This document shows positions 7,564 through 61,922 of a stretch of DNA of 64,000 nt, in pieces (the stretch's first letter is position 1; every line of letters starts with the position of its first letter). The translations under genes were made by a program, and so were the position numbers. Origin of the DNA: Candidatus Moranbacteria bacterium GW2011_GWC2_40_12. Its GTDB lineage: Bacteria; Patescibacteriota; Minisyncoccia; Moranbacterales; UBA11712. The stretch is from NCBI GenBank assembly GCA_000995965.1, contig LBYD01000003.1, positions 17,713 to 81,712 on the forward strand, read 5' to 3'. The notes below the pieces were generated by a model. That model did not search any database, was not told the origin of the DNA, and was given only the letters and a program-made list of their open reading frames with translations.

Positions 7564-8484
7564 TCAAGCCGATATTTGCAATTTCTTATAAACAGAACCA
7601 GCAGCAACCGCTCCTTCCGCCGCCGCGGTGATAATCTGCCGCAATTTATTCGATCCGTTAGTCACGTCTCCCGCCGCCCAAACGCCGGAAATATTCGTGG
7701 TTTGGCCGCTGTCCACCTTGACATATCCCTGCTCGTCCGTTTCGATTCCCAATTGATTTGTTATTTCCACCCCAGGCTCGCTGCCAATTTCAATGAAAAC
7801 TCCTTGAACTGCCAATTCTCCGCTGCCAGCGTGCTGTTTGTCCAAAACAATTTTTTCAACCGCCTTATCCCCTTTTATCTCTTTGATATTCGTACTGAAG
7901 ATGACTTCGATTTTTCTCTCGGCCGAAATTTTTTCCATATAGGCAGGATCTATCTTGAGTTTTTCCCCCCGATAGATCAAATACACTTGGCTGGCATATC
8001 GAGAAAGAAGCAGTGCGGCCGACCCCGCGCTGTTTCCTCCACCGACTACCGCCACAACTTTTTCTTTGAAAAAAGCGGCATCGCAGGTCGGGCAATAGGA
8101 AACCCCCTTGCCTTTGAATTCAGCTTCACCCGGAATTTGAAGTTTCCGGTATTCCATTCCTGACGCCAAAATTATATTTTTTGCCTGATACTCACCGGAA
8201 TGAGTCGTGATTTTGAATATATCCCCCTCTTTCGAGACGCTGGACACCGAATCCATCAGGATCTCCCCACCCAATTTTTCAGCGTGTTCGCGCATTTTTT
8301 GCAAAAGCTCAAAACCGGGCATAGAAACAGTTCCCGGCCAATTTTCGATCTGGTGGGCTTCGTTGGCTTGCCCGCCGGGTTCCCTTCCAATCACAAGATG
8401 CTTCACCTTATAGCGCGAAGAATAGATAGAAGCCGTGAGGCCCGCTGGCCCGGCACCGATGATAATTAGATCGAAGATATCCAT
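7564..8484 (-). CDS. trxB: thioredoxin-disulfide reductase
   Basis: 306 aa. Carries the FAD motif IIGAGPAGLTA, the redox motif CPTCD and an NADPH-binding GGGNSA motif. Confidence 0.9.
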   Translation of the reverse strand: MDIFDLIIIGAGPAGLTASIYSSRYKVKHLVIGREPGGQANEAHQIENWPGTVSMPGFELLQKMREHAEKLGGEILMDSVSSVSKEGDIFKITTHSGEYQAKNIILASGMEYRKLQIPGEAEFKGKGVSYCPTCDAAFFKEKVVAVVGGGNSAGSAALLLSRYASQVYLIYRGEKLKIDPAYMEKISAERKIEVIFSTNIKEIKGDKAVEKIVLDKQHAGSGELAVQGVFIEIGSEPGVEITNQLGIETDEQGYVKVDSGQTTNISGVWAAGDVTNGSNKLRQIITAAAEGAVAAGSVYKKLQISA

Positions 8485-8490
8485 GACTAT

Positions 8491-8591
8491 AATTTTGAAT
8501 TCGGAATTGTGAATTGTGAATAGGAATATTGAATACGGAATTCAGAATTCTATATTCTTGATTCCTATTCTAAATTCGCAGTTCTCAATTC
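8491..8591. repeat. heptad-periodic palindromic element (GAATTNN type)
   Basis: gaattcg gaattgt gaattgt gaatagg ..., then a loop, then ..cctattc taaattc gcagttc tcaattc. Sits between trxB and trxA. Confidence 0.75.
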
Positions 8592-10487: not shown

Positions 10488-11555
10488 CTAAACTTCTCTC
10501 TTCACTATATAATCCGCGATCCCGATCAGAAACGCTTTGACCTCCCTGTTGAAATCCGACTTTTCAATGGCCGCTTTTCCTTCTTCGACATATTTCCTCG
10601 CCAAATTTTGGGAATATTCAAAAGAGCCGGTTTCACGTATCACTCGCCTGAAACTTTCTATATCGCTTTCAGAAACATTTTTATTCCCCAGAAGTTTTTT
10701 CACCAATTTTTTCTGCTTCACGTCACTATTTTCAAGGGCCTTTACGATTAGGAGAGTTTGTTTCCCTTCCCGAAGATCGGAGCAAACCGGTTTTCCCAAT
10801 TTTTTTTCGTTCCCGAACGCCCCCAAAATGTCATCCTGAATTTGAAAAGCGATTCCGACCGGAACGGCATATTCGCTCAAAACTTTGAGTATCTTTTCGT
10901 CTGCGCCGGCGAGAAGCGCCCCGAGATGAAGCGGGCCTTCGACTGTATATTTGGCCGTTTTATTTCGATGCACTTCGATAATTTCTTTTTCAGTCGCCCG
11001 GCCTTTCGCTTCGAGCATCACATCCAGAATCTCGCCGGAAACGGTATTTACGACAATTTCCTGAAGTTTCAAAAGGGCTTTTTGCTTTCTCTCCGGAGAG
11101 AAACGGGAATTGAATATTATTTCATTTCCGAATGCCGCCGCCATATCACCCGCCACAATCGCCATTGAATCGCCAAAGTGTTTCGGTTCGGCTTTTTTAT
11201 AAAATTTCTTTGCCAAACCTTCATACCTCTTGTGGATCGTCTGGACACCGTGGCGAAAATCATCCCGGTCAATGATGTCGTCGTGAATGAGAAGAAAAAT
11301 ATGCGTGAGTTCTATACTCATCGAAGCCTCGATGATTTTTTCAAAATCATTGCCACCGGCCGCCCGATATCCCCAATACATGAAACCGGCCCGCACCCGT
11401 TTTCCGCCGGCGAGAATCAGATCGCGGATGCATTTCACGGCGTCCTTCGCCGACGGCCCGACCTCCCGCATCTCACGGAGCTTTTTGGCAAAATATTGGG
11501 CCAGACTACGATCAAGCGTTTTTTTGTAATTTTGCAGTTCTATTTTCGCGTCCAT
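10488..11555 (-). CDS. polyprenyl diphosphate synthase (trans-isoprenyl diphosphate synthase family)
   Basis: First DDxxD at LLIHDDIIDRDD and second at FQIQDDILG. Confidence 0.9.
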   Translation of the reverse strand: MDAKIELQNYKKTLDRSLAQYFAKKLREMREVGPSAKDAVKCIRDLILAGGKRVRAGFMYWGYRAAGGNDFEKIIEASMSIELTHIFLLIHDDIIDRDDFRHGVQTIHKRYEGLAKKFYKKAEPKHFGDSMAIVAGDMAAAFGNEIIFNSRFSPERKQKALLKLQEIVVNTVSGEILDVMLEAKGRATEKEIIEVHRNKTAKYTVEGPLHLGALLAGADEKILKVLSEYAVPVGIAFQIQDDILGAFGNEKKLGKPVCSDLREGKQTLLIVKALENSDVKQKKLVKKLLGNKNVSESDIESFRRVIRETGSFEYSQNLARKYVEEGKAAIEKSDFNREVKAFLIGIADYIVKREV

Positions 11556-14532: not shown

Positions 14533-14645
14533 CAGAATTTTGAATTGAGAATTGCGAATTTAGAATGGGAATGTTTGAATTTAGAATCCTGAATTCTTTA
14601 TTATTTATTCCCATTCGCAATTCTAAATTCTGAATTCTCAATTCT
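14533..14645. repeat. heptad-periodic palindromic element (GAATTNN type)
   Basis: gaatttt gaattga gaattgc gaattta gaatggg ..., then a ttattatttattc loop, then ccattcg caattct aaattct gaattct caattct. Overlaps the ftsI stop. Confidence 0.8.
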
Positions 14646-16928: not shown

Positions 16929-17037
16929 TGAATTATGAATTGTGAATTGCGAATTAGAATGGGAATGCGGAATCCCGAACTCTGAATTCTTTGTTCTAAA
17001 TTCCCATTCGCAATTCTTAATTCCAAATTCTCAATTC
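16929..17037. repeat. heptad-periodic palindromic element (GAATTNN type)
   Basis: gaattat gaattgt gaattgc gaattag aatggga ..., then a loop, then cccattc gcaattc ttaattc caaattc tcaattc. Confidence 0.8.
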
Positions 17038-19808: not shown

Positions 19809-20249
19809 ATGGAAGCGAAGAATAAAAAAGGTTTCACCCTCATTGAGCTGTTGGTGGCTATTGGTATTGTGTCAGTCTTGACCGCTGTTGTTTTTGTTTC
19901 GATTAATGGTTATCGAAGAGATGCTCGACAAGCAAAGATATTCGGATCGCTTAATTCAATAGTCACTAGTATATATAGCTGCTTTGGATTTAATGGTAAG
20001 GTTAACGCACCTTCTTCAAATGTTGACATTTGCTCTCTGTCTCCAACATATGGAAAATGGCTGGACTTGTCGATTGAACCAGGCAATTTTGAGTATCTAT
20101 TCGACCCTGCTGTTCTTGTTGAGAATCAATATCTGCCAAAGAAAGATTGGTCTTTTTTGGTCCAAAGCACAAAAGACCAAATAAAGATTTGCTGTAATGA
20201 CCGAATGAAAGGATGTGAAGCAATCGAATACGGCGGCATTTGTGATTAA
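19809..20249 (+). CDS. type IV pilin / pseudopilin (prepilin N-terminal methylation motif)
   Basis: N-terminus KKGFTLIELLVAIGIVSVLTAV (class III signal plus hydrophobic helix). Cys-rich C-terminal domain. Confidence 0.8.
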   Translation: MEAKNKKGFTLIELLVAIGIVSVLTAVVFVSINGYRRDARQAKIFGSLNSIVTSIYSCFGFNGKVNAPSSNVDICSLSPTYGKWLDLSIEPGNFEYLFDPAVLVENQYLPKKDWSFLVQSTKDQIKICCNDRMKGCEAIEYGGICD

Positions 20250-42531: not shown

Positions 42532-42756
42532 CAAACGACAAAAAACCAGCCAATTCAATAGGCCGGTTTTTTGATTATAAATAGCCATTTTTGCTATTTA
42601 CCCTGCCACTAAACCGTTGGAGAAGTCTCCACCGGAGGAACTTCCGGAGTCGGTTCCGCTGGAGGAGCCATTGGAGCTTCCGGAGCAGCCGGAGCTTCAG
42701 TTGTTTCTTCTCCTCCCATCGGAGTTGTTGTTTCGTCAGTCATAACGATATAAGTT

Positions 42757-42885
42757 AAAAATTAAAAAATCAAAATGAAAAATGACAATGCAAAGTGTTA
42801 AAATCGACTGGCGCTAAAATAATTATAGCATTCAAAACACTTTTTTATTTTTAATTGTCACTTTTACTTTTGATATTTACGCTTT
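42757..42885. repeat. heptad-periodic palindromic element (ATGNAAA/CAAAATG variant)
   Basis: aaaatcaaaatgaaaaatgacaatg ... aattgtcacttttacttttgatattt. Sits downstream of the ATPase gene. Confidence 0.65.
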
Positions 42886-42889
42886 AAAT

Positions 42890-45427
42890 TTACAACGGTT
42901 TCTCTCCCATATCAAACGCGTCGGCTGTCGCGGCCGCAGCGACAAAACTGGCTTTTTTCTTGATCTCCTCATTCACTATATCACGATTCCTGCCATATTT
43001 CAACTTAGAAAGTTCTTTTATCGCTTCGGCCACTTTCGCATTGCCTTTTGTCGGCGGATAAGTTTTCAGATTGAATGGCGTCGCCACCTGGCTCGCGATA
43101 AGAAGTTTCACAAAAGCGTTGTGATTGTCCACGTTCATCAAATCATTGGCGTCAAAAGACGGCTCGAATTGTTTTTGGACAAATTCTGCGTCCTCGGCCC
43201 CGATACGAAACGAACAAAGTGAACCAACATTGCCGAAAACGGCCTTGGAGATTTCCTCTTTGAGCTGGGCAATGAATTGATGGGCGATTACAAGCGCCAG
43301 GCGGTATTTGCGGGCTTCTGAAAGTATCTGGGCGATGGAATCAGTGGTGAAATTCTGAAATTCATCGATATACAAGAAAAAATCTTTGCGCTCCTTTTCC
43401 GGCATATCCACTCGCGACAGAGCTGAAATCAAAATTTTTCCGACGATTATCATTCCAAGCAGATTGGCGTTGATTTCGCCTATTTTTCCTTTTGAAAGAT
43501 TGACGAGGATTATCCGCCGATCGTCCATCGCCTGGCGGAAGTTGATTGTTGATTTTTCCTGAGCGATGATCGGCCGCATCATGTCATTTGAAATAAATTG
43601 AGTAAGTTTTGACGTAATATAAGGAACCATATTGGCAAGAGCCGCTTCACCCCCCGCTTTTTCTGCTTCTTTTTCCCAGAAATTCTTGACAACCGGATTC
43701 TGGCAGTGCTGAAGTTTCATATGGCGGAATTCTTCGTCCGCCAAAACCCGCGGAATTTCCATAAGCGTCGAACCGGAATCCGGGTGCTCCATCACGAGAA
43801 GCGCCGCATTTCGCATATACTGTTCGAACATTGGTCCGCCAGTTTGGCGCAAGTCGTACAGTTTGTCAAAAATGTTTATCATTTCGTTTATAACGAACGT
43901 TTTTTGCTCCGGTTTTTTCTGGTCATATTCCAGCATATTGAGTCCGAAAGGCCTTTCCATATCGGCCGGATCGAAATAAATCACGTCTTCCGCCCGCTCC
44001 TTAGGGATAGATTCAATGACATCATCAACCAGGTCACCATGCGGGTCAATCACGCAGACTCCTTCGCCATTTTTGATATCCTGTTTAACCATTTCCTGAA
44101 TCATGGTCGATTTTCCGGTTCCGGTTTGCCCGATGATATAAAAGTGCCTCCGCCTGTCATCCTGGCTGTGGCGAACGACTGTTTCCACGCCCCGATAATC
44201 GTTGAAGCCGAGAATGATGCCTTCTTGGGAAATATTGCTGGGCGGCGCGGAAGTGCGAGACTTGAGCCAGGCGATTTTTGGAGTTTCAGTGGAAAGAAGC
44301 GGAAAGTGAAAAATACTCGCCACTTCCTCGGAAGAAAGGACGATTCCCTGATTTTCCTTGAAATTCCGGAAAATAAAATCAAAGGCGATATCTTTTTTGC
44401 GCATCCTGTCTTCTCTCATCACCCGAAACCGATTCAAGCCCGGATTTTCATATTGGATAAAGGCATTTTCAAGTTGAGCCAAAACTTGCTCTGACCGCTC
44501 TTGCGTGAGAGCCGAGGATACCAGTCGAATGTTGACCGAAAATCCCGGCTTGTTCGATTTTCCCTCGATTTTTTTTATGATTTCCTGCTCTTCAGGAGTA
44601 AGCTGAATGGGATCCTTGTCACTTTTCAAAATATCTTTTTTTTGGCTATCATCTTTCTTTACGGCCATTTTGAAAAATCCCCGAAAAAATTCACGGATGT
44701 AATTGTCTTTTTTCACATCCGAAAGACGCCTTCCCTGCTGCATCTTGTGAGCCACTTCCCGTCCCTTGCTCCTCCAGTCGCCCCGTGCCGGTTTCACCAA
44801 AAGCTGTATTGCGGCTCCTTCTTTTTTTTCTTCGAACTTTCCCAAAACGTTGGTTATATTGTTGAGCGGATCGGATTCCAAAAACTGATAAGTGCGAATG
44901 GGGAAATGGTTCTTCTCGCTTAGTTTCAGAAAGGACGCTGCCGTGAAACTCCCCGGTGAAAAAATATTATAATCCTTTACTCTTTCGACAGCCGCTTTGG
45001 GATAAAAGCTTTGGATTTGGCGCTCAATAATATTGATGAATTTTTTCGGCGCCCCGACATAAAAAGAAATTTCGTCTGAGTTTGACGGATTGGCCATTTC
45101 AAGGGCGATGACCGCGTCGCCATAGATCAACCGGTGGAAAATACCAGTTTTTTCCTTGATGTTACCGAGGCTGGCAAGAAGATGCTCCATCACGGATATG
45201 AGCTCTTTGTCATTTTTTGGCGGCTGTTGCTGCTGAGACTGCTGGCTTTGGGCTTTGAGCGGCCGGCTCACTTTCACAATATCTATGTCCATATTGAGCG
45301 AACGTGTCACCTGACCGCGGAAAGAGACAAAACTTCTGAATATCATCAAAAAAGCCGATCCGAAGCTTAGAGCGGCCAGAAGAAAAGCAATAGGATATAA
45401 AATTAGGTTTAGGTTGTAGATGTCCAT
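42890..45427 (-). CDS. membrane-anchored P-loop ATPase of the VirD4/TraG/TraD (type IV coupling protein) / VirB4 superfamily
   Basis: 845 aa with an N-terminal TM helix. Walker A IIGQTGTGKST, Walker B FFLYIDEFQNF, and RKYRLALVIAHQFIAQL (the RKxG...QSxxQL-type motif). Confidence 0.75.
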   Translation of the reverse strand: MDIYNLNLILYPIAFLLAALSFGSAFLMIFRSFVSFRGQVTRSLNMDIDIVKVSRPLKAQSQQSQQQQPPKNDKELISVMEHLLASLGNIKEKTGIFHRLIYGDAVIALEMANPSNSDEISFYVGAPKKFINIIERQIQSFYPKAAVERVKDYNIFSPGSFTAASFLKLSEKNHFPIRTYQFLESDPLNNITNVLGKFEEKKEGAAIQLLVKPARGDWRSKGREVAHKMQQGRRLSDVKKDNYIREFFRGFFKMAVKKDDSQKKDILKSDKDPIQLTPEEQEIIKKIEGKSNKPGFSVNIRLVSSALTQERSEQVLAQLENAFIQYENPGLNRFRVMREDRMRKKDIAFDFIFRNFKENQGIVLSSEEVASIFHFPLLSTETPKIAWLKSRTSAPPSNISQEGIILGFNDYRGVETVVRHSQDDRRRHFYIIGQTGTGKSTMIQEMVKQDIKNGEGVCVIDPHGDLVDDVIESIPKERAEDVIYFDPADMERPFGLNMLEYDQKKPEQKTFVINEMINIFDKLYDLRQTGGPMFEQYMRNAALLVMEHPDSGSTLMEIPRVLADEEFRHMKLQHCQNPVVKNFWEKEAEKAGGEAALANMVPYITSKLTQFISNDMMRPIIAQEKSTINFRQAMDDRRIILVNLSKGKIGEINANLLGMIIVGKILISALSRVDMPEKERKDFFLYIDEFQNFTTDSIAQILSEARKYRLALVIAHQFIAQLKEEISKAVFGNVGSLCSFRIGAEDAEFVQKQFEPSFDANDLMNVDNHNAFVKLLIASQVATPFNLKTYPPTKGNAKVAEAIKELSKLKYGRNRDIVNEEIKKKASFVAAAATADAFDMGEKPL

Positions 45428-45433
45428 TTTTAT

Positions 45434-45520
45434 TTTTGAATTGAGAATTGGGAATTCAGAATTGAGAATGAGAATATTGCCTGCCTACCGGCAGGCAGGA
45501 ATCTGGAATATTAATATTCC
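45434..45520. repeat. heptad-periodic element (GAATTNN) with embedded GC hairpin
   Basis: gaattga gaattgg gaattca gaattga gaatgag aatattg, then cctgcctaccggcaggcagg, then ggaatattaatattcc. Confidence 0.65.
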
Positions 45521-45534
45521 ACACTATATTTTTT

Positions 45535-45915
45535 TTATCTTTTCGCCCTTATAAGTCCAATTATAAGTTTATGACATACCACCGTTTGGTCAGCAATTTT
45601 CATAAATTCAGATTGACTAAGGTATCCAACGTCTTTAGCAATTAGAAGTTGATTTTGAACTTCTATCAGCGAGGTATGGGCAGTATTATAAAACTGATTT
45701 TTTTCCTTGGAAGATCTTTTCGCAAAGCCTTCAGCTATATTCGAAGTAAAAGAAACTATTGCTCTTCGAAGCTGGCTTTTCAAGCCATATTCCTCGCAAC
45801 CTGGAAAATCGTTAGTTGCTTTATAAATAATCAAAACCAATTTGTGCCCTTCTTGCCAAACGACTAAGTCCGTAAACCTAGTAATTTTCCTAAATTCATT
45901 ATTCTTTTTTCCCAT
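45535..45915 (-). CDS. four-helix-bundle protein (TIGR02436, '23S rRNA intervening sequence protein' family)
   Basis: DLVVWQEGHKLVLIIYKATNDFPGCEEYGLKSQLRRAIVSFTSNIAEGFAKRS...SLIEVQNQLLIAKDVGYL matches the family consensus. Confidence 0.85.
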   Translation of the reverse strand: MGKKNNEFRKITRFTDLVVWQEGHKLVLIIYKATNDFPGCEEYGLKSQLRRAIVSFTSNIAEGFAKRSSKEKNQFYNTAHTSLIEVQNQLLIAKDVGYLSQSEFMKIADQTVVCHKLIIGLIRAKR

Positions 45916-45950
45916 TCACAATTCTCAATTCTAAATTCATAATTCTTTCA
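45905..45950. repeat. half element of the GAATTNN family (NNAATTC arm only)
   Basis: cccattc acaattc tcaattc taaattc ataattc. Confidence 0.5.
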
Positions 45951-46446
45951 AAAGTCCTTTCTGAATAAGCTGCTTCCTCAATTCATCTTCCAGCAATCGG
46001 TCGTGGACTTCGTCGAGAGTATAATTGTCCGCTATGTCGGAGGTTTTTCCCTTGTCCATATGCCGGGCGACTTTTATCGCATGTTCCGGTCCCTTTTGAA
46101 GCGCCATTTCCACCAATTTATCCACTTTTTTCTCATATTCGGTGATTTGAGAAACCGTCCCGGCGTCATCGCTCACGCTCGCCCCGGCCGCCGGTTTTTG
46201 AGTTTGAATTGCTTTTCTGGCAGTTTCAATTTTCTCGGAGACTTCTTCAAACTTTTTTTCTCCTCCCGTTTCAGATTCGATTCCCGGCATTTTTTCAGCC
46301 GCCGGCACATCCGGCATTTCCGGTTTTTCCACTATCGTATTTTCGGAATTTTTCTGCGCATTGCCAACTGAAATATCCCCTTTCAGCTTTTTCGCCAAAT
46401 CCAAATCCTCCTTTTCGATAGGCTCCTGGTAGTTTGATTGAGGCAT
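45937..46446 (-). CDS. acidic hypothetical protein
   Basis: 169 aa, E/K/D-rich. No motif recognised. Confidence 0.5.
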   Translation of the reverse strand: MPQSNYQEPIEKEDLDLAKKLKGDISVGNAQKNSENTIVEKPEMPDVPAAEKMPGIESETGGEKKFEEVSEKIETARKAIQTQKPAAGASVSDDAGTVSQITEYEKKVDKLVEMALQKGPEHAIKVARHMDKGKTSDIADNYTLDEVHDRLLEDELRKQLIQKGLLKEL

Positions 46447-46495
46447 AATTATTTTCTACAACTTATAAGCAAATACGAGCATAGAAACTTCCTCG

Positions 46496-46606
46496 AAGAA
46501 TTGTGAAATTGGATTTTTGAATTGTGAATAGGAATAATAAATAGAGAGTTATAATTCAACATTCTTGATTCCCATTCCTAATTCTCAATTCACAATTCTA
46601 AATTCT
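46496..46606. repeat. heptad-periodic palindromic element (GAATTNN type)
   Basis: gaattgtgaaattggatttttgaattgtgaataggaat ..., then a loop, then attcttgattcccattcctaattctcaattcacaattctaaattc. Confidence 0.8.
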
Positions 46607-46613
46607 ATATTTT

Positions 46614-46952
46614 TCAACTTTTCGCCGCTTCGTCTACATTTCCAAAGCTGGCAATGTCTTCTTTTAGCTCGTCTTTGAGGTCGCTAACCACATTTTTCAC
46701 AAATTCTTCGTAATCAATAATTTTTTCTCGCAGAAACTTTTCAACTTGATCCGACTCTGTTTTTTCTTCAAGCATTTTCATGAGCTCTTGCTGATCTTCC
46801 TGCGTCAACTTGTCCATTGTCTCTATATAGAGCCTTTTCAGGACCAACTCCAAAAGATCGACCAGAACTTTGGCCTTTTGCTCTTCGGGCAAATCCGTGA
46901 GTCCCAATTCTTCAATGATCGTCTGCTTCAAGATTGTGTTTTGCGCGGTCAT
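46614..46952 (-). CDS. acidic helical hypothetical protein
   Basis: 112 aa with an ATG start. No motif recognised. Confidence 0.5.
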   Translation of the reverse strand: MTAQNTILKQTIIEELGLTDLPEEQKAKVLVDLLELVLKRLYIETMDKLTQEDQQELMKMLEEKTESDQVEKFLREKIIDYEEFVKNVVSDLKDELKEDIASFGNVDEAAKS

Positions 46953-46970
46953 AATTTTGATTTCAAAAAA

Positions 46971-49208
46971 TTAAAGTCTATTTTTAATACTCAAGTTTTT
47001 GAATAAATGGAAATTAGTCCTCGACATCCGCTCAAGATATTGCTGCATTGTTTCCCGTGCATTGAGAGGGGGAAATTTTTGAAAGGTTTCCTGGGTGAAC
47101 TTAGTCGCTTTTCCCATTTGAGTTATCTCACTATACGTCGATGGTAGCGGCGTATCGCTGGTAACCCCGGGACTCAATCTACTGATTGCCTCATGAACTT
47201 GAGAGGCAGGCGTGTTGAGTTTGAAGCCACCTAAGTTTTCAAGCCAGCTGTTCCAAAGCCGCGCGTTGGCGCTGGTGAGTCCCGCTATTGCCTGTTCATT
47301 CAAAGCTTGAGCTTCGACTCCAAGCCGCGCTATTTTTTCAGCGCTTGCGGCCGACGAAGTTCCCGGCCGGCCGCTTGTCACGTCTTCCCAACGGGCTTTT
47401 GCTTTAGCCTCCATTGCTTCAGCCGCTCTCATTTTTTGATCAGCAATGCTTTCCACCGCTCTTCCTCCACCCCGCACATGATGTTCTGCTGCCGCAGCCG
47501 CCTTTCCCGCACCGTGAGCCGGCTCGTGATGAACGGCTCCAGCCTTGATTTGTGAAGTGTCTCCCACAAACAATTTTCCTTTATCATCCAAAGTCACCAT
47601 ATAGCCCTCTCTGACTACTGACGGCAATTTTCCTCCATGGTGGCTCTTATACCATTCCATCGCATTGGCGGTTTTGTTTTCCGCGAGGATTTTTATTTTT
47701 TGGGCGTCTGACAAATCATTGAAATTATCAGCATTGATCCCCATTCGGCTCAAGAAACCCTGCTTTTTGAGAGAATGAAACAAATTTTGGATTTTTGGAT
47801 CATCAGGCTTAAGATTATATTCCTTCGCGTGTTCTATATACATATCTCTTGTCACCTTCCAGACATTTTCACCGGATTTGATCCTGTGCGAATCACCCAA
47901 AAACGGCTTGCTTGTTTTTTCCGGAGCAACCGATCCTCCAGCCTTGGGCTGCACTTCCGCGTCAGAAATCGGGCTGTGCGCCGGTTCATAGAAACCGGTT
48001 TTCCCGCCCCCGAAGGAATGGGTGATTTTATCCCAGGCCTGGCTAAAAAATCCTTTTATGCCCGCCGCATAATGGCTTACAATAGTGCCTGCGATAAATG
48101 TTCCGCCAGCTAGTCCAAGAGCGAGAAGCTTTTGTTTTCTGTCTTTTGAAGCAAATGTTTGTTCTTCCTCGCCGATCGATTTTCCACCCTCCATCCCTTC
48201 GACAAATTGTATCCATTCTTCCTCAGTTTTGCTCTTTATTGCCTCAATTTGTCTCAAAACATCTTGTTGCACTTCTTTCTTTTTGGCTTCAATGGTCCCT
48301 GCTTCCATTCTTTTTTTTGCCGCGTAACCGGCTCCCACAGCGCTGAAACCACGCCATATAGCGGCCGCTGATGCGCCCGCCGATCCAACAGCCACAACGC
48401 CCAAAGCGGGCAAACTGGCCGCAATCAGTGACGTCGCGGCAAAACCAATAGCTCCAGCCGTTGCAACTCCTTTTGCAACTCCTTTTGCGGTCAATTTTCC
48501 ATCCACGAGAAACTGTTTGGAGACAAAATCTCGATAATTTTTGCCAACATTCGCAAAGCCCACAAGAGCTTTGCCTGGCCACCATTTCGAATTTTCAGCT
48601 CGCAGTTTGTCTTCCTCTGCCCTTGACCTGATAGCGATCGCAGAAATATGGTATTCGGCTAAAAAAGTTTCAAGCTCCCGTTCATTTTCCCTGAATGCTC
48701 TATATCCAGCCATTTTCAATTTCCGAAGTAGTTCCTCTCTCTTTTCCAAAAATTCTTTTATCTCGTCATCCTTCGCCTTTCTTTTTGTAAGACCGACGGA
48801 TTCTAAAGCGCTTGATATAACCCGCCACTTCCTGCCCACTCCTTCTCTCCCTTTGAAAATTTTCTCCTCATTCCCGTCGAATTCCTGCTTTATTTTTTCA
48901 AATTCTTCATGATTTTTTCTTTCATTTTCCGCACTTAAAGCGTCAGATTTGGCTTTTGCTCCTTCAGAATCTTCCTCGCTTGGCCCGCTTTCTTTGTTTT
49001 CCGGATTTACGTCGTTTCTCCCTCCTGACAAATCTTGCGCGGCGGCCGGTTCTTCATCTGGGGGCATTTTATTCTCGCTCAAATCTGGCTCAGATGCGGC
49101 GCCTGTCTTTGCCTTTTTGTTTTCTTCAGAACTTTCCGGAGTTCCGGCGGCAGTTGCACCAGGAGCCTGGCCAGCTTCAGGAAACCTTCCTTTTTTTATT
49201 ATTCCCAT
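46971..49208 (-). CDS. large membrane protein with Gly/Ala-rich hydrophobic segments, function unknown
   Basis: 745 aa. The acidic N-terminal region is low-complexity. TM-like segments GVATAGAIGFAATSLIAASLPALGVVAVGSAGASAAAIW and LLALGLAGGTFIAGTIV. Locally elevated GC. Confidence 0.6.
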   Translation of the reverse strand: MGIIKKGRFPEAGQAPGATAAGTPESSEENKKAKTGAASEPDLSENKMPPDEEPAAAQDLSGGRNDVNPENKESGPSEEDSEGAKAKSDALSAENERKNHEEFEKIKQEFDGNEEKIFKGREGVGRKWRVISSALESVGLTKRKAKDDEIKEFLEKREELLRKLKMAGYRAFRENERELETFLAEYHISAIAIRSRAEEDKLRAENSKWWPGKALVGFANVGKNYRDFVSKQFLVDGKLTAKGVAKGVATAGAIGFAATSLIAASLPALGVVAVGSAGASAAAIWRGFSAVGAGYAAKKRMEAGTIEAKKKEVQQDVLRQIEAIKSKTEEEWIQFVEGMEGGKSIGEEEQTFASKDRKQKLLALGLAGGTFIAGTIVSHYAAGIKGFFSQAWDKITHSFGGGKTGFYEPAHSPISDAEVQPKAGGSVAPEKTSKPFLGDSHRIKSGENVWKVTRDMYIEHAKEYNLKPDDPKIQNLFHSLKKQGFLSRMGINADNFNDLSDAQKIKILAENKTANAMEWYKSHHGGKLPSVVREGYMVTLDDKGKLFVGDTSQIKAGAVHHEPAHGAGKAAAAAEHHVRGGGRAVESIADQKMRAAEAMEAKAKARWEDVTSGRPGTSSAASAEKIARLGVEAQALNEQAIAGLTSANARLWNSWLENLGGFKLNTPASQVHEAISRLSPGVTSDTPLPSTYSEITQMGKATKFTQETFQKFPPLNARETMQQYLERMSRTNFHLFKNLSIKNRL

Positions 49209-49224
49209 TATTATAAAGTTAATT

Positions 49225-50754
49225 TTATGATTTTTTTGCGCCTCGAATGAACTCTTCCAGCAAAATTCTGCTGTTATAATATCTGATAATCAGCTTGGCA
49301 TTTTCTTTGTCATAACCGGCTTTTCCGGCTTCACCTTCCAGCTCTCCCCGAAATTCATTCTTGAACTTTCCCGACTCTTCCGCTGTTGAAATCTTTCTTT
49401 CTTTTTTTTCCTCGAAATAATCATCCAATACTTCTGGATTCAGAAAATATCTTTGAAAAAAAGCGACATCGAAGTTTTCTTTCGAAACGATCTCCCTGAA
49501 AACTCTTTTCAGCGAATTGAGAATGCTCATGTTATCCTTGCGAGCCTTATCCGCGTCTTCTGGCTTCATTTCTTTGTATTTTTTCTCGACTTCTTTATTC
49601 AAATTTGTGATTCCCGCTCTATTCACCAATTCCACGTATTTTTTCTTTTGCTCTTCGTTTAGCTTGTCATATTCTCTTTCTTTCATGGCCTCTCCATTGC
49701 CCTTTTTTTGGTGCGCCTCCGATGCCAAAAGCGATGCCACTTCCCCTGGTTGAAGATTCGGCGCTGGTTCATCTGGTGCGGGTGATGATCCTTTTTTTTG
49801 TTCTGCATCGCCCGATATTTTTCCTTTCGGCAAAATTTTTATGATTTCCTGTCCCCTTGAAAAAGCATTTGTTGCTACCCGCCGGGCTTCGGTTATAATC
49901 AGCTGATCAGCTAATGGGCTTTCGTATTCATCTCCCAACAATTTGAGAATCAGACCCGCGTGTCCGTCAATATTTTCGAGGATTTTATGCCTGATTTTCC
50001 CTTTTTCATGCTCCAGCCTCCCGTAATCGACGCCCAAAATCTTCTTTTTTTCGACGAATGCGTCTATCCTCGCCACACTTTCAGCAATGGCTTGCCTAAT
50101 CGCCTCAACAATTTTTTTTCTCATTTCCTTCTGTTTCGAATTTTCGCCTGATTTGTCAATGGTCATTTCGCCAGCGTCCGGCACGTCCTCGCCCAGTAAA
50201 ATTTTTACCTTTTTTATTTGCTCTTCAATGATGCCGAGATTTTTTTCCGATCTAGTTTTTTCCGCAGCGGCTTCTAGCGCGTGCCTGTAATAGCCCAGAA
50301 TGGCTTTCGTAGTTTCATCCCTGATTTCAGGAATTTGATTCAGATTATTTTCCAAAATAACCTTTTCCAGCTCTTCTGTCCCATTTTGATATTTTTTGGA
50401 AAGGGCATCCAGGGTGTATCCCAAGCAACTTTTCGCAATTTCGTCCTCCTCCAGCAATTTTCGCGTTCTCTTCACCCAAGGCGCAAGGACTTTCAACCCG
50501 TTTTCATTCAGGATTTTGGTTAAATTGCTTTCGTTGGAAAATAATTTTTCATAGTATTCTTTTATTTTTTCGATGTAATCTTTTTTCGGACTATCCGGAC
50601 CTTTTTCTCCTTTTCCATCGACTGGCAAATCGGCTGGAGGCAAAGGAGAATCTTCAGCGCTTTGTCTCGCAGCAGTTTCCTGAGGTGAATCTTCCGGCAT
50701 CGCTCCTTCAGGCGGCTCTTCTATTCTCTTTCGATGTATATTTTCTTCAGCCAT
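49225..50754 (-). CDS. charged coiled-coil-rich hypothetical protein
   Basis: ~509 aa from ATG 50754; the track starts at GTG 50769. No TM helix. K/E-rich. Confidence 0.55.
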   Translation of the reverse strand: MAEENIHRKRIEEPPEGAMPEDSPQETAARQSAEDSPLPPADLPVDGKGEKGPDSPKKDYIEKIKEYYEKLFSNESNLTKILNENGLKVLAPWVKRTRKLLEEDEIAKSCLGYTLDALSKKYQNGTEELEKVILENNLNQIPEIRDETTKAILGYYRHALEAAAEKTRSEKNLGIIEEQIKKVKILLGEDVPDAGEMTIDKSGENSKQKEMRKKIVEAIRQAIAESVARIDAFVEKKKILGVDYGRLEHEKGKIRHKILENIDGHAGLILKLLGDEYESPLADQLIITEARRVATNAFSRGQEIIKILPKGKISGDAEQKKGSSPAPDEPAPNLQPGEVASLLASEAHQKKGNGEAMKEREYDKLNEEQKKKYVELVNRAGITNLNKEVEKKYKEMKPEDADKARKDNMSILNSLKRVFREIVSKENFDVAFFQRYFLNPEVLDDYFEEKKERKISTAEESGKFKNEFRGELEGEAGKAGYDKENAKLIIRYYNSRILLEEFIRGAKKS

Positions 50755-50978
50755 TTTTTTATATTTCACAAACCAAAACTAAACTTATCTTATAAGTCTC
50801 CAAAATTTTTGTTTTTATATTACGTTTAAATTATACCACAAAAACTTTCTGAAGTGAACAACTCTCGGCGGTGTGGATAAGTCCGAGCAATTTTCTCTCA
50901 AAAGAAAAAGCCCCAGCGCCGCCCTCGAGTGGAAATCCACATGGGTTTGGCGCCAGAGGCTTTGAAGTTTGGCGATCC

Positions 50979-51839: not shown

Positions 51840-52056
51840 TTCCTTTCCCCTCCCACTGAAATTTTGAGCGCTTTGCCGCCTTGCCCCGCACCAAAAATGC
51901 GCTTTTCGCATTTTTTCGATGATTCTCGAATTTTGGTGCGGGGTGAAAAAACGCTTTGTTTCTTTGACTAATGCTTAGAACAGAAAAAAGATATTGTCAA
52001 GCCTCGCGGTTGTGCTGTATAATATGATCATCGGAATAACTTCTAAAACAGAAATG

Positions 52057-53742
52057 AAAAGGAAAACGAGAAATCAAAAAAAATCTGCCCTGAAGGACAG
52101 AATAGCTGTTTTTTGGAAAGATAAATCTTTTCTCCGGCATCGTTTTTTTTATTTGACAGTCGCGGCATCGATTTTTGCGATTGCTATTCTGGCAAGGACA
52201 TATCATATCACGACTTTGCCACCGGGAGTCTATCCGGACGAAGCCGTGAACGGGACAGACGCTATCAACGCTCTTGAAACTGGCCAATTTCAATGGTTCT
52301 ATCCTAATAACTACGGACGTGAAGGACTCTTTATGAATCTCATTGCTCTGGGATTCAAGATTTTCGGCGTGAGCGTCATAACTCTCAAAATGTGGTCCGT
52401 TCTTTTCGGCGTGCTGACCGTGGCCGGAATGATGCTTCTTGCCCGCGAGCTTTTCGGAACCTATCGCGCCGGCCTTGTCGCCGGATTCCTCTATGCCACT
52501 TCTTTTTGGGCTATCAATTTCAACCGCATTTCCTTCCGGGCCAATATGCTGCCGTTCGTCCTTGTTTTCACTTTCTATTTCCTCTTTAAGGGCCTTCGGG
52601 AGAAAAAAACCTATGATTATATCCTAGCCGGCGTCTTTTTTGGCCTTGGTGTCCATGGATATATCGCTTTCCGGATCGCGCCCGCAATTCTGGCCGCGCT
52701 GTTTCTCGCTTTTCTCATTTCAAAGAAAAAATTTCTTCGCCAATACTGGAAATCAATTCTGTCTTTTTTGCTGGCCGCCTTTTTTATCGCCCTTCCGATG
52801 CTCCTCACTTTCTGGTTCCATCCTGAATATTTTGAAACCCGCTCCGAATCCGTGTCTGTTTTTTCACCGAAAGTCAATCAAGGCCATCTTGGAAAAGCTC
52901 TCTGGGAAAGCGTGACCAAAACCTTTGGGATGTTCAATTTTCAGGGGGACCAAAACTGGCGGCATAATTTTCCAAGCCAGCCCCAGCTTCAATCCTGGAC
53001 GGGCATTTTTTTCTTGATCGGAATAATCGTCTTGTTTTATCATTTCTTTTTCTGGCTCTATCAAAGGATCAAAAACGGAAAAAGGAGCCAGGAATTTGTG
53101 GTTTCCGTTTTGCTTCTCTCATGGCTCGCAGCAATGCTGCTCCCCGGACTTCTCACCTATGAAGGCCTTCCCCACGCCCTCCGCACCATTGGCGCCCTTC
53201 CAGCCGCGATCCTCATTGCCGCTTTCGCCGTGGAAATTATTTTCAGATTCCTGGATCATATGAAAGCAAAAAATTTCCGGCTTCCGATTGCCCAGCTCGG
53301 CCGCGGAGCGCTTATCTTTCTCATTGCCTGGTCCGGATTTGTCGCCATAAAAACATATTTCATCGACTGGGCGAGCGCTCCAGAGATTCACGCGGGCTTT
53401 TCCCAAAATTTCAAAAATATGGCTCTTTATCTCAATAATCTTCCGGTTAGCGTCAACAAATATGTCGTCGCCAATGCTGGCGGCCAAATCATGGATGACG
53501 GCCTGCCGGTTTCAGCCGAAGTAGTCAGACTTCTCACTCATTCTCCCACACCGGGAATAAATTATTCCCGGCCCGGCGACTTCGACCCAAAAAACATCAA
53601 GGTACCGGCCAAAGTTGTCCTCATGTATTATGACGGAGAAATCATTGCCAAGATAAAATCGATTTTCCCCGGCGCCCTCGTCCAAAAACTCGACCCTCAG
53701 CCGGGAAACGGGACCGATTATTATGTTATTAATGTTAACTAA
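52057..53742 (+). CDS. GT-C fold glycosyltransferase (family 39/83, PMT/ArnT-like)
   Basis: ~13 TM helices. N-terminal loop with YPDEAVNGTDA (the DE motif). The track starts at TTG 51994; ATG candidates are at 52024 and 52057. Confidence 0.7.
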   Translation, partial: KRKTRNQKKSALKDRIAVFWKDKSFLRHRFFYLTVAASIFAIAILARTYHITTLPPGVYPDEAVNGTDAINALETGQFQWFYPNNYGREGLFMNLIALGFKIFGVSVITLKMWSVLFGVLTVAGMMLLARELFGTYRAGLVAGFLYATSFWAINFNRISFRANMLPFVLVFTFYFLFKGLREKKTYDYILAGVFFGLGVHGYIAFRIAPAILAALFLAFLISKKKFLRQYWKSILSFLLAAFFIALPMLLTFWFHPEYFETRSESVSVFSPKVNQGHLGKALWESVTKTFGMFNFQGDQNWRHNFPSQPQLQSWTGIFFLIGIIVLFYHFFFWLYQRIKNGKRSQEFVVSVLLLSWLAAMLLPGLLTYEGLPHALRTIGALPAAILIAAFAVEIIFRFLDHMKAKNFRLPIAQLGRGALIFLIAWSGFVAIKTYFIDWASAPEIHAGFSQNFKNMALYLNNLPVSVNKYVVANAGGQIMDDGLPVSAEVVRLLTHSPTPGINYSRPGDFDPKNIKVPAKVVLMYYDGEIIAKIKSIFPGALVQKLDPQPGNGTDYYVINVN

Positions 53743-53747
53743 AATTT

Positions 53748-55544
53748 ATGCTCGAAAAATACCAGCATCATATCGTGGCGGCAATTCTTATTATAGTACT
53801 CGCCATCTCCATCGGCACGGCACTCGGCGATGCGGCCATAATGGATGAGGTAGCCCATATTCCGTCGGGTTATTCCTATGTGAAATATCATGACTTCCGC
53901 CTCAATCCGGAACACCCGCCGCTTCTCAAAGATTTGGCCGGAATCCCCCTGCAATTTTTGGATGTCAGCTTTCCGACCAACGAGCAATTTTGGACCACCG
54001 ACGCCAATGGCCAATGGAACGCCGGCTGGCGTTTTCTGTATCTCCCCGGAAATGACACGGAAAAAATCATTTTTTGGTCGCGTTTCCCGATTATTCTCCT
54101 TTCACTTCTTCTCGGATTTTTTATTTTCAAATGGGCCAAGGAACTCTTCGGCCTGAAAGCAGGGCTTCTGGCGCTGGCTTTCTACGCCTTTGATCCCAAT
54201 ATTCTCGGCCACAATCACTATGTCACAACCGATCTTGGCATTGCCGCTTTTCTCTTTTTTGCCTTTTATTTTTTCCTGAAGTATCTCAAAAATCCGAATT
54301 GGCAGACAATCGCACTGGCTGGAATTTTCATGGCATTGGCGCAGCTGGCCAAATTTTCGGCAGTTCTTATGTTCCCTGTTTTTGGCATTGTTCTCCTCGC
54401 CAACATATTCTTTCGAAAGAAAAAAATCAAGTTTTCCCTCCTGGGATCGGGAAAAATAAAAAAATTCTGGCTTCAGAAATTTTATCTATACTCGTCCAGC
54501 TTTGTCATTATTTTTCTCATCCATATTCTTCTTATCGGAGTTGTCTATCAGCTGAATATCTATCGCATGCCAACCGAAAAAATTCACGAGCTTGTTGACA
54601 CGCAGCTGTATGGCGGATCGAAGAACCTTACCGGCGACACTCTTCACAAAATGGCGGATAACCCCGTTCTCCGCCCCTATAGCCAGTATCTTACAGGCCT
54701 TTTTATGGTTTTTGGGCGGGTGGCCGGCGGAAACACGACATATTTCTTCGGCCAGGTAACAAACCAGAGTTTTCGGGAATATTTTCCCATGGTGTTTCTC
54801 ATCAAAGAGCCTATACCCATTCTCCTGTTTCTCCTTAGCGCTCTGGCCATTGCTCTTTATTTCATCCTCCGAAATAATTTGGCTGATTTCCCGAGGCATA
54901 TTTGGAAAAACGTGAAAAATTATCTGGACGGCCATATTGCCGAAACTGCCATGCTTCTCTTCGTTGCCCTTTATGCCTATGTGAGCATCACGGGCAATCT
55001 CAACATCGGTTTTCGTCATCTTTTTCCGATTCTTCCGTTCATGTATATTCTCGTTTCCAAAGAAATTGTTTTTCTCTGGGCAAAATTGAGAGGCAATGCC
55101 AGAAAAATCTATTCTGTTGCTGTCGCCGTTCTTTTGCTCTGGCTCGCCGCCGAGACGGCTCTGGCCTATCCCTATTATCTCGCCTACTTCAATGAAACCG
55201 TTGGCGGATCAAAAAACGGCTACAAGTATGTAACCGATTCTAATGTTGACTGGGGGCAGGAGCTCAAACGCCTTCAAACCTTCATCGAGAAGAATAATAT
55301 TGAAAAAATCCGAGTTGACTATTTCGGCGGCGGCGATGTGAAACATTACCTTGGTGAAAGAGCGGTTATTTGGCACGCGGATCTGGGGCAAGAACCCGGC
55401 TGGTATGCAATATCCGCGACTTTCATCCAAAATTCTCTTTACTATAAAATCACCGAAGGAAAACCCGACTACCAGTGGCTGCGGGAAAAAGAACCTTATG
55501 CCGCAATCGGGCACTCAATACTGATATATAGAATTGTGAATTAA
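53748..55544 (+). CDS. GT-C fold glycosyltransferase (family 39/83), tandem paralogue
   Basis: IMDEVAHIPSGYSY first-loop DE motif. Polytopic. 598 aa. Confidence 0.7.
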   Translation: MLEKYQHHIVAAILIIVLAISIGTALGDAAIMDEVAHIPSGYSYVKYHDFRLNPEHPPLLKDLAGIPLQFLDVSFPTNEQFWTTDANGQWNAGWRFLYLPGNDTEKIIFWSRFPIILLSLLLGFFIFKWAKELFGLKAGLLALAFYAFDPNILGHNHYVTTDLGIAAFLFFAFYFFLKYLKNPNWQTIALAGIFMALAQLAKFSAVLMFPVFGIVLLANIFFRKKKIKFSLLGSGKIKKFWLQKFYLYSSSFVIIFLIHILLIGVVYQLNIYRMPTEKIHELVDTQLYGGSKNLTGDTLHKMADNPVLRPYSQYLTGLFMVFGRVAGGNTTYFFGQVTNQSFREYFPMVFLIKEPIPILLFLLSALAIALYFILRNNLADFPRHIWKNVKNYLDGHIAETAMLLFVALYAYVSITGNLNIGFRHLFPILPFMYILVSKEIVFLWAKLRGNARKIYSVAVAVLLLWLAAETALAYPYYLAYFNETVGGSKNGYKYVTDSNVDWGQELKRLQTFIEKNNIEKIRVDYFGGGDVKHYLGERAVIWHADLGQEPGWYAISATFIQNSLYYKITEGKPDYQWLREKEPYAAIGHSILIYRIVN

Positions 55545-55640
55545 GAATTTTGAATTGAGAATAGGAATATCGAATATTGAATCCTGAATTCTTTATTTTT
55601 TCTTCCCATTCAAAATTCAAAATTCGCAATTCCAAACTCC
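55531..55640. repeat. heptad-periodic palindromic element (GAATTNN type)
   Basis: gaattgt gaattaa gaatttt gaattga gaatagg aatatcg ..., then a loop, then cccattc aaaattc aaaattc gcaattc. Its first units encode the last 4 codons of the upstream gene. Confidence 0.8.
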
Positions 55641-61816: not shown

Positions 61817-61922
61817 AATTGAATTGAGAATTTAGAATTGGGAATTGCGAATGGGAACAAAGAATCATGAATTCTGAATTCTATATTCCGGATTCCCGTT
61901 CCAAATTCAAAATTCGCAATTC
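61817..61922. repeat. heptad-periodic palindromic element (GAATTNN type)
   Basis: gaattga gaattta gaattgg gaattgc gaatggg ..., then a loop, then cccgttc caaattc aaaattc gcaattc. Confidence 0.8.

Follow-up and report, generated by a model that had tools for sequence, protein, structure and literature searches.

A Moranbacteria chromosomal operon anchored by an orphan VirD4/TrwB-type coupling protein gene

A 64,000-nucleotide (nt) stretch of the Candidatus Moranbacteria bacterium GW2011_GWC2_40_12 genome (contig LBYD01000003.1, positions 17,713 to 81,712; hereafter the window) carries a minus-strand gene cluster at 42.6-50.8 kb, and our analysis showed this region to be one chromosomal operon anchored by the gene of an orphan type IV coupling protein (T4CP) of the VirD4/TrwB type. 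Every open reading frame (ORF) that a first-pass annotation had listed for the cluster was present on the minus strand, its protein of 509 amino acids (aa) corresponding to an internal ATG of a 514-aa ORF with a GTG start, and the charged, acidic and Gly/Ala-rich compositions given there were as described. The 44-aa ORF that had been placed at 42605-42739 also exists, but 4 nt away from those coordinates. The genes of the cluster are as follows (window positions).

49225..50769, minus strand: 514-aa charged helical protein with a GTG start (509 aa if started at the internal ATG); the operon begins with this gene
46971..49208, minus strand: 745-aa Ala/Gly-rich membrane protein of a fast-evolving family
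46614..46952, minus strand: 112-aa acidic helical protein, Pfam DUF5663 (PF18908, E = 2.1e-5), net charge -13
45937..46446, minus strand: 169-aa acidic protein, net charge -9, with ~80 conserved C-terminal residues
45535..45915, minus strand: 126-aa four-helix-bundle protein of the 23S rRNA intervening sequence (IVS) family (PF05635, TIGR02436)
42890..45427, minus strand: 845-aa orphan T4CP, identified with Pfam, NCBIfam, the PDB and AlphaFold
42609..42743, minus strand: 44-aa acidic ORF rich in Pro/Glu/Thr/Ala (MTDETTTP...), downstream of the ATPase gene

A protein deposited for Candidatus Moranbacteria bacterium GW2011_GWC1_45_18 matches the 845-aa ATPase at 100% identity, and the ATPase has homologues in the thousands; the genes of the cluster are considered real. 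The ATPase family comprises 23,026 clusters at 50% identity (E <= 1e-3). By its profile matches the protein is a VirD4/TrwB-type coupling protein: Pfam TrwB_AAD_bind scored 47.4 bits (cut-off 20.5; residues 423-739, positions 12-303 of the 387 in the profile), T4SS-DNA_transf 30.2 bits (20.1) and DUF87 35.3 bits (23.2), the top NCBIfam matches were TraD and VirD4-like CD1115, and TrwB was the sole PDB sequence match, aligned at the Walker A region and the RKYRLALVIAHQFIAQL motif. The P-loop features reported in the first-pass annotation were all confirmed, namely Walker A (GQTGTGKS, 433-440), Walker B (FLYIDEF, 683-689) and RKYRLALVIAHQFIAQL. Among 59 homologues the ORF is intact, the Walker motifs are invariant, and the RKYRLALVIAHQFIAQL motif, which aligns to the equivalent motif of TrwB, is invariant or nearly so; as read from these sequences, the ATPase is an active enzyme kept under constraint.

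The protein consists of one N-terminal transmembrane (TM) helix (~6-35), a DUF8128 N-domain (~70-400) and, at ~420-790, a TrwB/VirD4-like ATPase domain interrupted by an all-alpha insert. Residues ~7-35 are hydrophobic and are followed by basic residues, forming a membrane anchor that the AlphaFold 2 (AF2) model renders as a helix at 6-46. In this model (predicted local distance difference test, pLDDT, 65) the TM anchor is a long N-terminal helix, the alpha/beta N-domain at ~73-340 is predicted with confidence, and six helices at 507-612 are inserted between the strands of a RecA-like core, where model confidence is moderate. A profile of the DUF8128 N-domain gave no match to PDB sequences at E <= 10. 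Some T4CP homologues reach 1,700-2,000 aa (P0171, P0177, P0180, P0182, P0184, P0186 and P0187), with the T4CP part N-terminal to an extension of ~1,000 aa.

The first-pass annotation had called the ATPase VirD4/TraG/VirB4-like; the VirD4/TraG/TrwB assignment holds, with all three Pfam models above their cut-offs, and the VirB4 assignment does not, as those models fall far below theirs (CagE_TrbE_VirB gave no match, and TIGR00929 13.5 bits against a cut-off of 643, over the P-loop only). An FtsK/SpoIIIE identity was rejected in the same way (PF01580 14.6 bits against 24, residues 408-447 only, no gamma domain), as was HerA (NF040819 21 bits against 970 and HerA_C 14.9 against 22, with only the shared DUF87 P-loop region matching); no NurA-like gene was found next to the ATPase gene. 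An anti-phage defence ATPase of the HerA/MADS type was considered here, since PADLOC mad8 (1.9e-16) and several HerA models do match the ATPase domain, but the match is confined to that generic domain, none of seven other proteins scanned (six from the cluster and one adjacent) matches a defence model, no nuclease, Sir2 or methylase partner is present, and the locus is syntenic and conserved and not a variable island. We regard a defence function as highly improbable.

Outside the candidate phyla radiation (CPR), tblastn found plasmid homologues of the ATPase (21-30% identity) in Bacillus, Streptomyces-group bacteria, Clostridium, haloarchaea and Sulfolobus, and many of the matches extend over residues ~115-820; one homologue, from a Bacillus plasmid, is 24% identical over residues 115-820 (E = 7e-46). 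Such plasmid genes are annotated as 'DUF87 domain-containing' or 'type IV secretory system conjugative DNA transfer family'. On two Bacillus plasmids (NZ_CP086062 and NZ_OX419581) a replication-relaxation relaxase gene follows directly downstream of the homologue, and then come conjugal transfer genes, with TcpD/TcpE genes and a gene for a large ATP-binding protein on one of the two (B. subtilis), while the order on the Embleya plasmid NZ_CP108778 is PrgI, XF1762, VirB4-like ATPase, T4CP homologue, relaxase and NlpC/P60. Every bacterial plasmid homologue examined lies in a conjugation cluster. Judged on sequence and gene context, the non-CPR plasmid relatives are real T4CPs with the same architecture as the Moranbacteria ATPase. 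Genetic linkage to relaxase and VirB4 mating-pair genes was found for these plasmid homologues but not in Moranbacteria, where the T4CP has lost this company and gained fixed partners. The type IV secretion systems (T4SSs) of Patescibacteria have been derived from the monoderm conjugation machinery of mating-pair formation (MPF) type FATA (PMC12102498), and the kinship of the ATPase to monoderm plasmid T4CPs is consistent with that origin.

Homologues of the ATPase are also encoded by SPO1-like phages and phage G (phrog_5156, E = 2e-87), and the DUF8128-plus-ATPase architecture was seen in large Bacillus and Geobacillus phages that have no T4SS (NC_011421, SPO1 gp27.4; NC_023719, phage G gp156; TP-84). 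A search of IMG/VR viral contigs for close relatives of the ATPase found none.

The region was compared with 84 related loci in which the ATPase is 56-89% identical to that of the window, taking 10 kb on each side where the contig allowed. Gene order is constant across these loci (84 species-level genomes), with the same flanking housekeeping genes, and the median intergenic gaps between the ATPase gene and its partner genes are 26-66 nt. Upstream of the operon lies a divergent pair of PMT_2 glycosyltransferase genes, and downstream a convergent 209-aa/DUF763 pair. The PMT_2 pair is syntenic with the operon in 56-59 of the 84 loci and the operon therefore has a fixed chromosomal address. Its start is probably at a promoter-like site predicted from the sequence ahead of the 514-aa gene.

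51994-55544, plus strand: two tandem PMT_2-type glycosyltransferase genes, diverging from the operon
50830..50858, minus strand: promoter-like site upstream of the 514-aa gene, TTCACT-17-TATAAT with a TG, matching the consensus at 10 of 12 positions

The rest of the window is housekeeping in character (ClpB, PBP2-type transpeptidase, Mur ligase, DnaX, IMPDH, UvrC, thioredoxin and GreA), and two further ORFs of 667 and 980 aa are UvrB and UvrA by their position in the syntenic relative L003. Co-conservation of the neighbours, a point raised by the first-pass annotation, was found across Moranbacteria for the 169-aa, the 112-aa DUF5663 and the 745-aa families, but not for the 514-aa protein or the IVS gene, the latter being an insertion. 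As the ATPase belongs to the T4CP family and has three co-conserved neighbours, what was found is neither an FtsK/HerA profile nor an ATPase whose surroundings change from genome to genome. The order of these three partner families is the same throughout.

The most constant partner is the 169-aa family, whose gene lies directly upstream of the ATPase gene in 82 of the 84 loci; in L003 the two genes share one base, the last of the 169-aa gene and the first of the ATPase gene as called (an overlap of stop and start codons), and in L094, of a lineage at 44% identity, the 169-aa-family gene overlaps the T4CP start by 4 nt. No match to the 169-aa protein was found in Pfam or the PDB, and a Pfam scan of 60 family members gave nothing consistent. 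The DUF5663 gene lies upstream of it in 67 of the 84 loci. The first-pass annotation saw no recognisable domain in any partner; this proved wrong for the 112-aa protein, which scores 25.4 bits with PF18908 (cut-off 23.7) and covers positions 1-83 of the 84 in that profile; PF18908 is also matched by 59 of 60 positional orthologues (best 1.1e-11). The 112-aa and 169-aa proteins were considered as paralogues, which hhalign ruled out. A DUF5663 family profile marginally matches the N-terminal domain of GpsB, a cell-cycle protein (PDB 8e2c, E = 0.012; hhalign 74%, 31 columns), DUF5663 and GpsB/DivIVA having the motif EV..FL...I.DY.. in common; the Pfam DivIVA model did not match the 112-aa protein.

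In Daviesbacteria-type loci (35-43% identity) hidden Markov models (HMMs) of the DUF5663, 169-aa and 745-aa families found no match, and an unrelated ORF of 117-142 aa occupies the 169-aa slot; the DUF5663 and 169-aa HMMs were likewise without matches in Microgenomatia loci. Since both L094 and the Daviesbacteria-type loci have a small upstream ORF ahead of the T4CP gene, the smallest conserved unit consists of the T4CP and a small protein encoded upstream, and the fuller partner module is specific to Moranbacteria. In L088, a Microgenomatia-type locus, paralogous acidic helical proteins of 65-67 aa flank the T4CP (7762-7965 and 11040-11237), similar in style and undetected by the DUF5663 HMM.

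The 745-aa protein has a disordered N-terminus, a helical cytoplasmic region, a TM hairpin (~245-296) and a third TM segment (~360-384), with its C-terminal region probably outside the cell. One member of this family is present in each of 66 of the 84 loci, found only by iterative HMM search, and in 51 loci it is the third ORF upstream of the ATPase gene, next to the DUF5663 gene. The conserved core (~100-520) includes the TM segments. A Pfam scan of 49 members gave no shared domain, a profile search with the family brought up only 12 proteins, all of them lacking Pfam domains, and the AF2 model is poor (pLDDT 57), Foldseek finding nothing in the PDB below E = 0.37. A LysM-like domain, proposed from a VxxGxSxW motif, was rejected after comparison with a LysM consensus (hhalign probability 0.4%).

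Unrelated proteins of 430-850 aa, in several small clusters, occupy the slot that lies upstream of the 745-aa family; 37 of them gave a single Pfam match, to DnaJ. The 514-aa protein of the window has one tblastn match in the 84 loci, no Pfam domain and a singleton position when proteins of the slot are clustered, and is a lineage-specific occupant of this variable slot. L001 (5276-9097) and L019 (5552-9022) each encode one long protein, of 1,156-1,273 aa, with matches to the 745-aa family as well as to the largest family of the upstream slot. It is therefore a fusion, and the two large proteins are thus linked functionally; the 514-aa protein lies outside the slot family that is fused.

Downstream of the T4CP gene the loci differ. 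In five distinct Moranbacteria loci (L001, L033, L035, L042 and L046) a VirB2-like pilin gene follows directly, encoding a protein of 127-137 aa with a signal peptide and two hydrophobic helices (PF18895 T4SS_pilin, 1.8e-5), and in L092 (45% identity) the T4CP is followed by a 673-aa protein with a pilin-like segment. The window has no pilin gene at this place and has the 44-aa MTDE... ORF instead, after which a hairpin and T-run were read by eye at ~42545-42575. MTDE/MTDD... ORFs of 40-59 aa follow the ATPase gene in nine close relatives (the 78-89% identity clade), that of L003 (12559-12681) being called as a gene. In 38 loci (e.g. L015 13640-16096 on the minus strand, L018, L026 and L031) a convergent gene close behind that of the T4CP encodes a member of a conserved family of single-TM proteins of 730-920 aa, which is unrelated to the ATPase and absent from this place in the window.

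The remaining cluster gene encodes the 126-aa IVS-family protein (PF05635, 2.2e-32, 111.9 bits against a cut-off of 33.8; TIGR02436, 1e-30), which is flanked by repeats. The repeat elements of the first-pass annotation are real, with 29 matches in the window where 0.02 were expected by chance, and heptamer arrays occur at seven other places besides the IVS flanks. The arrays of GAATTGA-like heptamers are mostly inverted pairs, 60-100 nt apart and intergenic; the IVS gene lies inside one pair, and no gene lies inside the others.

45438..45497, no strand: tandem array of the heptamer GAATTGA with an 8-bp GC hairpin (45478-45497), ATPase-side boundary of the IVS insertion
45912..45946, no strand: inverted heptamer array, 169-aa-side boundary of the IVS insertion
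46496..46611, no strand: inverted pair of heptamer arrays with no gene inside, lying between the genes for DUF5663 and the 169-aa protein
8497-8591, 14535-14644, 16930-17037, 45438-45475, 45912-45946, 46496-46611, 55531-55564 and 61821-61854: heptamer arrays of the window
L009 9531-9929, L040 3389-3757, L045 9582-9971 and L050 4416-4784: IVS-family genes at operon junctions
L013 8840-9217, L021 8939-9340 and L050 3395-3808: PDDEXK_3 genes at operon junctions

In the window and in L009, alignment placed an insertion of ~510 nt precisely after the stop codon of the 169-aa gene and before the start codon of the ATPase gene. The same junction has no insertion in L003, where the flanking genes overlap, and a gene-less array in L005, while in L040 an IVS gene sits at the DUF5663/169-aa junction, the place of the gene-less array pair in the window. 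Absent from this junction in L003, the IVS gene is an insertion. Both junctions hold IVS or PD-(D/E)XK genes in different genomes, and these small genes seem to have been inserted into the operon repeatedly and independently; the gene-less arrays look like relatives of the IVS-gene element resembling miniature inverted-repeat transposable elements. Going by these alignments, the IVS gene and heptamer arrays are selfish insertions and not components of the module.

Small selfish genes inserted in the operon, the absence of any nearby relaxase or MPF gene and the conjugative plasmids that carry the closest non-CPR relatives would all fit a decaying remnant of an integrated conjugative element, of which only the T4CP gene and some cargo survive. 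Conservation largely refutes this: the ORF is intact with catalytic motifs invariant in 59 homologues, synteny and housekeeping flanks are the same in all 84 species-level genomes, the family extends to 23,026 clusters at 50% identity, no integrase was found, and the GC content and skew of the region are the same as those of its surroundings. We therefore consider a remnant very unlikely.

Our preferred reading, held tentatively and given a little less than an even chance, is that the operon is a substrate-receptor module for a T4SS encoded elsewhere in the genome. The T4CP would form a membrane-anchored hexamer that uses ATP to select substrates (protein, possibly DNA) and feed them to an MPF-FATA-like T4SS encoded elsewhere, ATP-driven delivery of substrates to a T4SS channel being the predicted role of the ATPase. 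The IcmS/IcmW/LvgA adaptors of DotL and the VirE1 chaperone are small acidic T4SS adaptors, and the 112-aa and 169-aa proteins are likewise small, acidic and helical, with genes beside that of the T4CP; on the model of DotL-bound IcmS/IcmW or of VirE1 they may be adaptor or chaperone subunits, and the 745-aa membrane protein may be a docking partner or cargo. A connection of the T4CP to a T4SS is drawn because a VirB2-like pilin gene lies downstream of it in relatives, because the Saccharibacteria T4SS cluster has no coupling protein of its own (PMC10633639), and because T4CPs are near-universal, with 5,713 VirD4-like genes in 2,918 of 3,035 Patescibacteria genomes (PMC12102498). A further elaboration, which we think improbable, is that the 169-aa/T4CP pair with DUF5663 is a dedicated effector-recruitment platform for the Patescibacteria T4SS, the hypervariable large proteins encoded upstream (the 745-aa family and those of the variable slot) being its translocated cargo or host-contact factors.

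A number of observations count against a T4SS receptor module. No relaxase, VirB4, PrgI, TcpE or NlpC/P60 hydrolase was found by tblastn with plasmid queries in the 64-kb window or the 84 loci. Just 148 of the 5,713 Patescibacteria T4CP genes are near virB4, VirB4 is present in 2,417 genomes, making the T4CP the commoner of the two (96% against 80% of genomes), and in S. epibionticum t4cp is non-essential and the T4SS essential (PMC12102498). The pilin match, at 25.1 bits, stays just under the Pfam cut-off of 26.6, neither DUF5663 nor the 745-aa family was detected beside Microgenomatia homologues, no sequence or structural similarity of the 112-aa and 169-aa proteins to IcmS, IcmW, LvgA or VirE1 was detected, and what suggests an adaptor role for them is their size, charge and position. 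Homologues of VirB3/PrgI, VirB6 and VirB8 were also absent from the window and from within 10 kb of the gene in the 84 genomes, and a search of the 84 loci for a second T4CP or VirB4 gave only a partial second T4CP copy, in L067. The locus is therefore not the compact secretion or DNA-transfer apparatus that the first-pass annotation had suggested, since a T4CP alone is a receptor and motor and not a channel. Nor is the type IV pilin gene at 19809, which had been thought relevant, a part of it: this gene, 23 kb from the cluster, matches N_methyl and encodes a type IV pilus pilin, part of a different machine that is irrelevant to a T4SS.

The main rival, which we judge unlikely but to be taken seriously, is an exapted translocase working independently of any T4SS, with its own membrane platform of 169-aa, DUF5663 and 745-aa proteins and no VirB4, and serving a housekeeping or envelope function, for example the translocation of DNA or protein where the cell divides, the handling of the chromosome or the export of surface proteins. 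Possible exaptation of Patescibacteria T4CPs has been mentioned by the authors of PMC12102498, and the greater frequency of T4CP over VirB4, the rarity of virB4 nearby and the dispensability of T4CP where the T4SS is essential, all from that study, speak for it. The ATPase is far more conserved than its neighbours (56-89% identity across loci against only 11-45% for neighbour proteins), its position among housekeeping genes is stable (the PMT_2 pair and UvrB/UvrA here, FtsQ-like and FtsA/PilM-like genes in relatives), homologues occur in SPO1-like and G phages without a T4SS, and the DUF5663 profile weakly resembles the GpsB/DivIVA N-terminal motif. That resemblance is marginal, however, with Pfam DivIVA unmatched, the ATPase has no FtsK gamma domain and scores below the FtsK_SpoIIIE cut-off, the pilin gene beside the T4CP in some relatives points to a T4SS, and all bacterial plasmid homologues examined lie in conjugation clusters.

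If the operon is indeed an effector platform, it would supply the half, for coupling and substrates, that is missing from the T4SS on which the epibiotic lifestyle depends. Much of bacterial diversity belongs to the Patescibacteria, their T4SS is essential in the one genetically tractable species, whose T4SS cluster is without a coupling protein, and no Patescibacteria T4SS substrate is named in the literature cited here. To this the locus adds a DUF8128-type T4CP shared with monoderm conjugative plasmids, a fixed 169-aa partner, a DUF5663 protein and a membrane protein in Moranbacteria, and occasionally a VirB2-like pilin. The operon partners are concrete candidates for interaction and secretion tests of whether orphan T4CPs feed a T4SS or serve another use.

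Classical T4CPs usually carry two TM helices. Unlike TrwB (R388), VirD4, DotL and Cagbeta, the Moranbacteria T4CP has one predicted TM helix and no linked relaxase or MPF genes, and between its TM helix and ATPase domain it has a DUF8128 domain of ~330 residues which these proteins do not have. VirB4/TrwK differ in that the Moranbacteria ATPase is TM-anchored and its plasmid homologues coexist with a separate VirB4. Monoderm (MPF-FATA-type) plasmid T4CPs are of similar size to the ATPase of the window and share with it a DUF8128 plus TrwB-like domain, homologous over ~115-820, but their genes adjoin those for a relaxase, a VirB4-like ATPase, PrgI or TcpD/TcpE and a cell-wall hydrolase, whereas the Moranbacteria gene, at 21-27% identity, is without these and has the 169-aa, DUF5663 and 745-aa partners. 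The orphan Patescibacteria T4CPs of Quinonero-Coronel et al. 2025 (PMC12102498), which are VirD4-like, chromosomal, near-universal and far from virB4, are very probably the same proteins. The ATPase is thus an orphan T4CP of a class of virB4-unlinked T4CPs already published, and the novelty claimed for the components in the first-pass annotation holds for the partner set but not for the T4CP class. That study contains no analysis of the t4cp neighbourhood, and the DUF8128 architecture, the partners and the occasional VirB2-like pilin are described here; what is new is the conserved partner set and a DUF8128 architecture shared with plasmid T4CPs.

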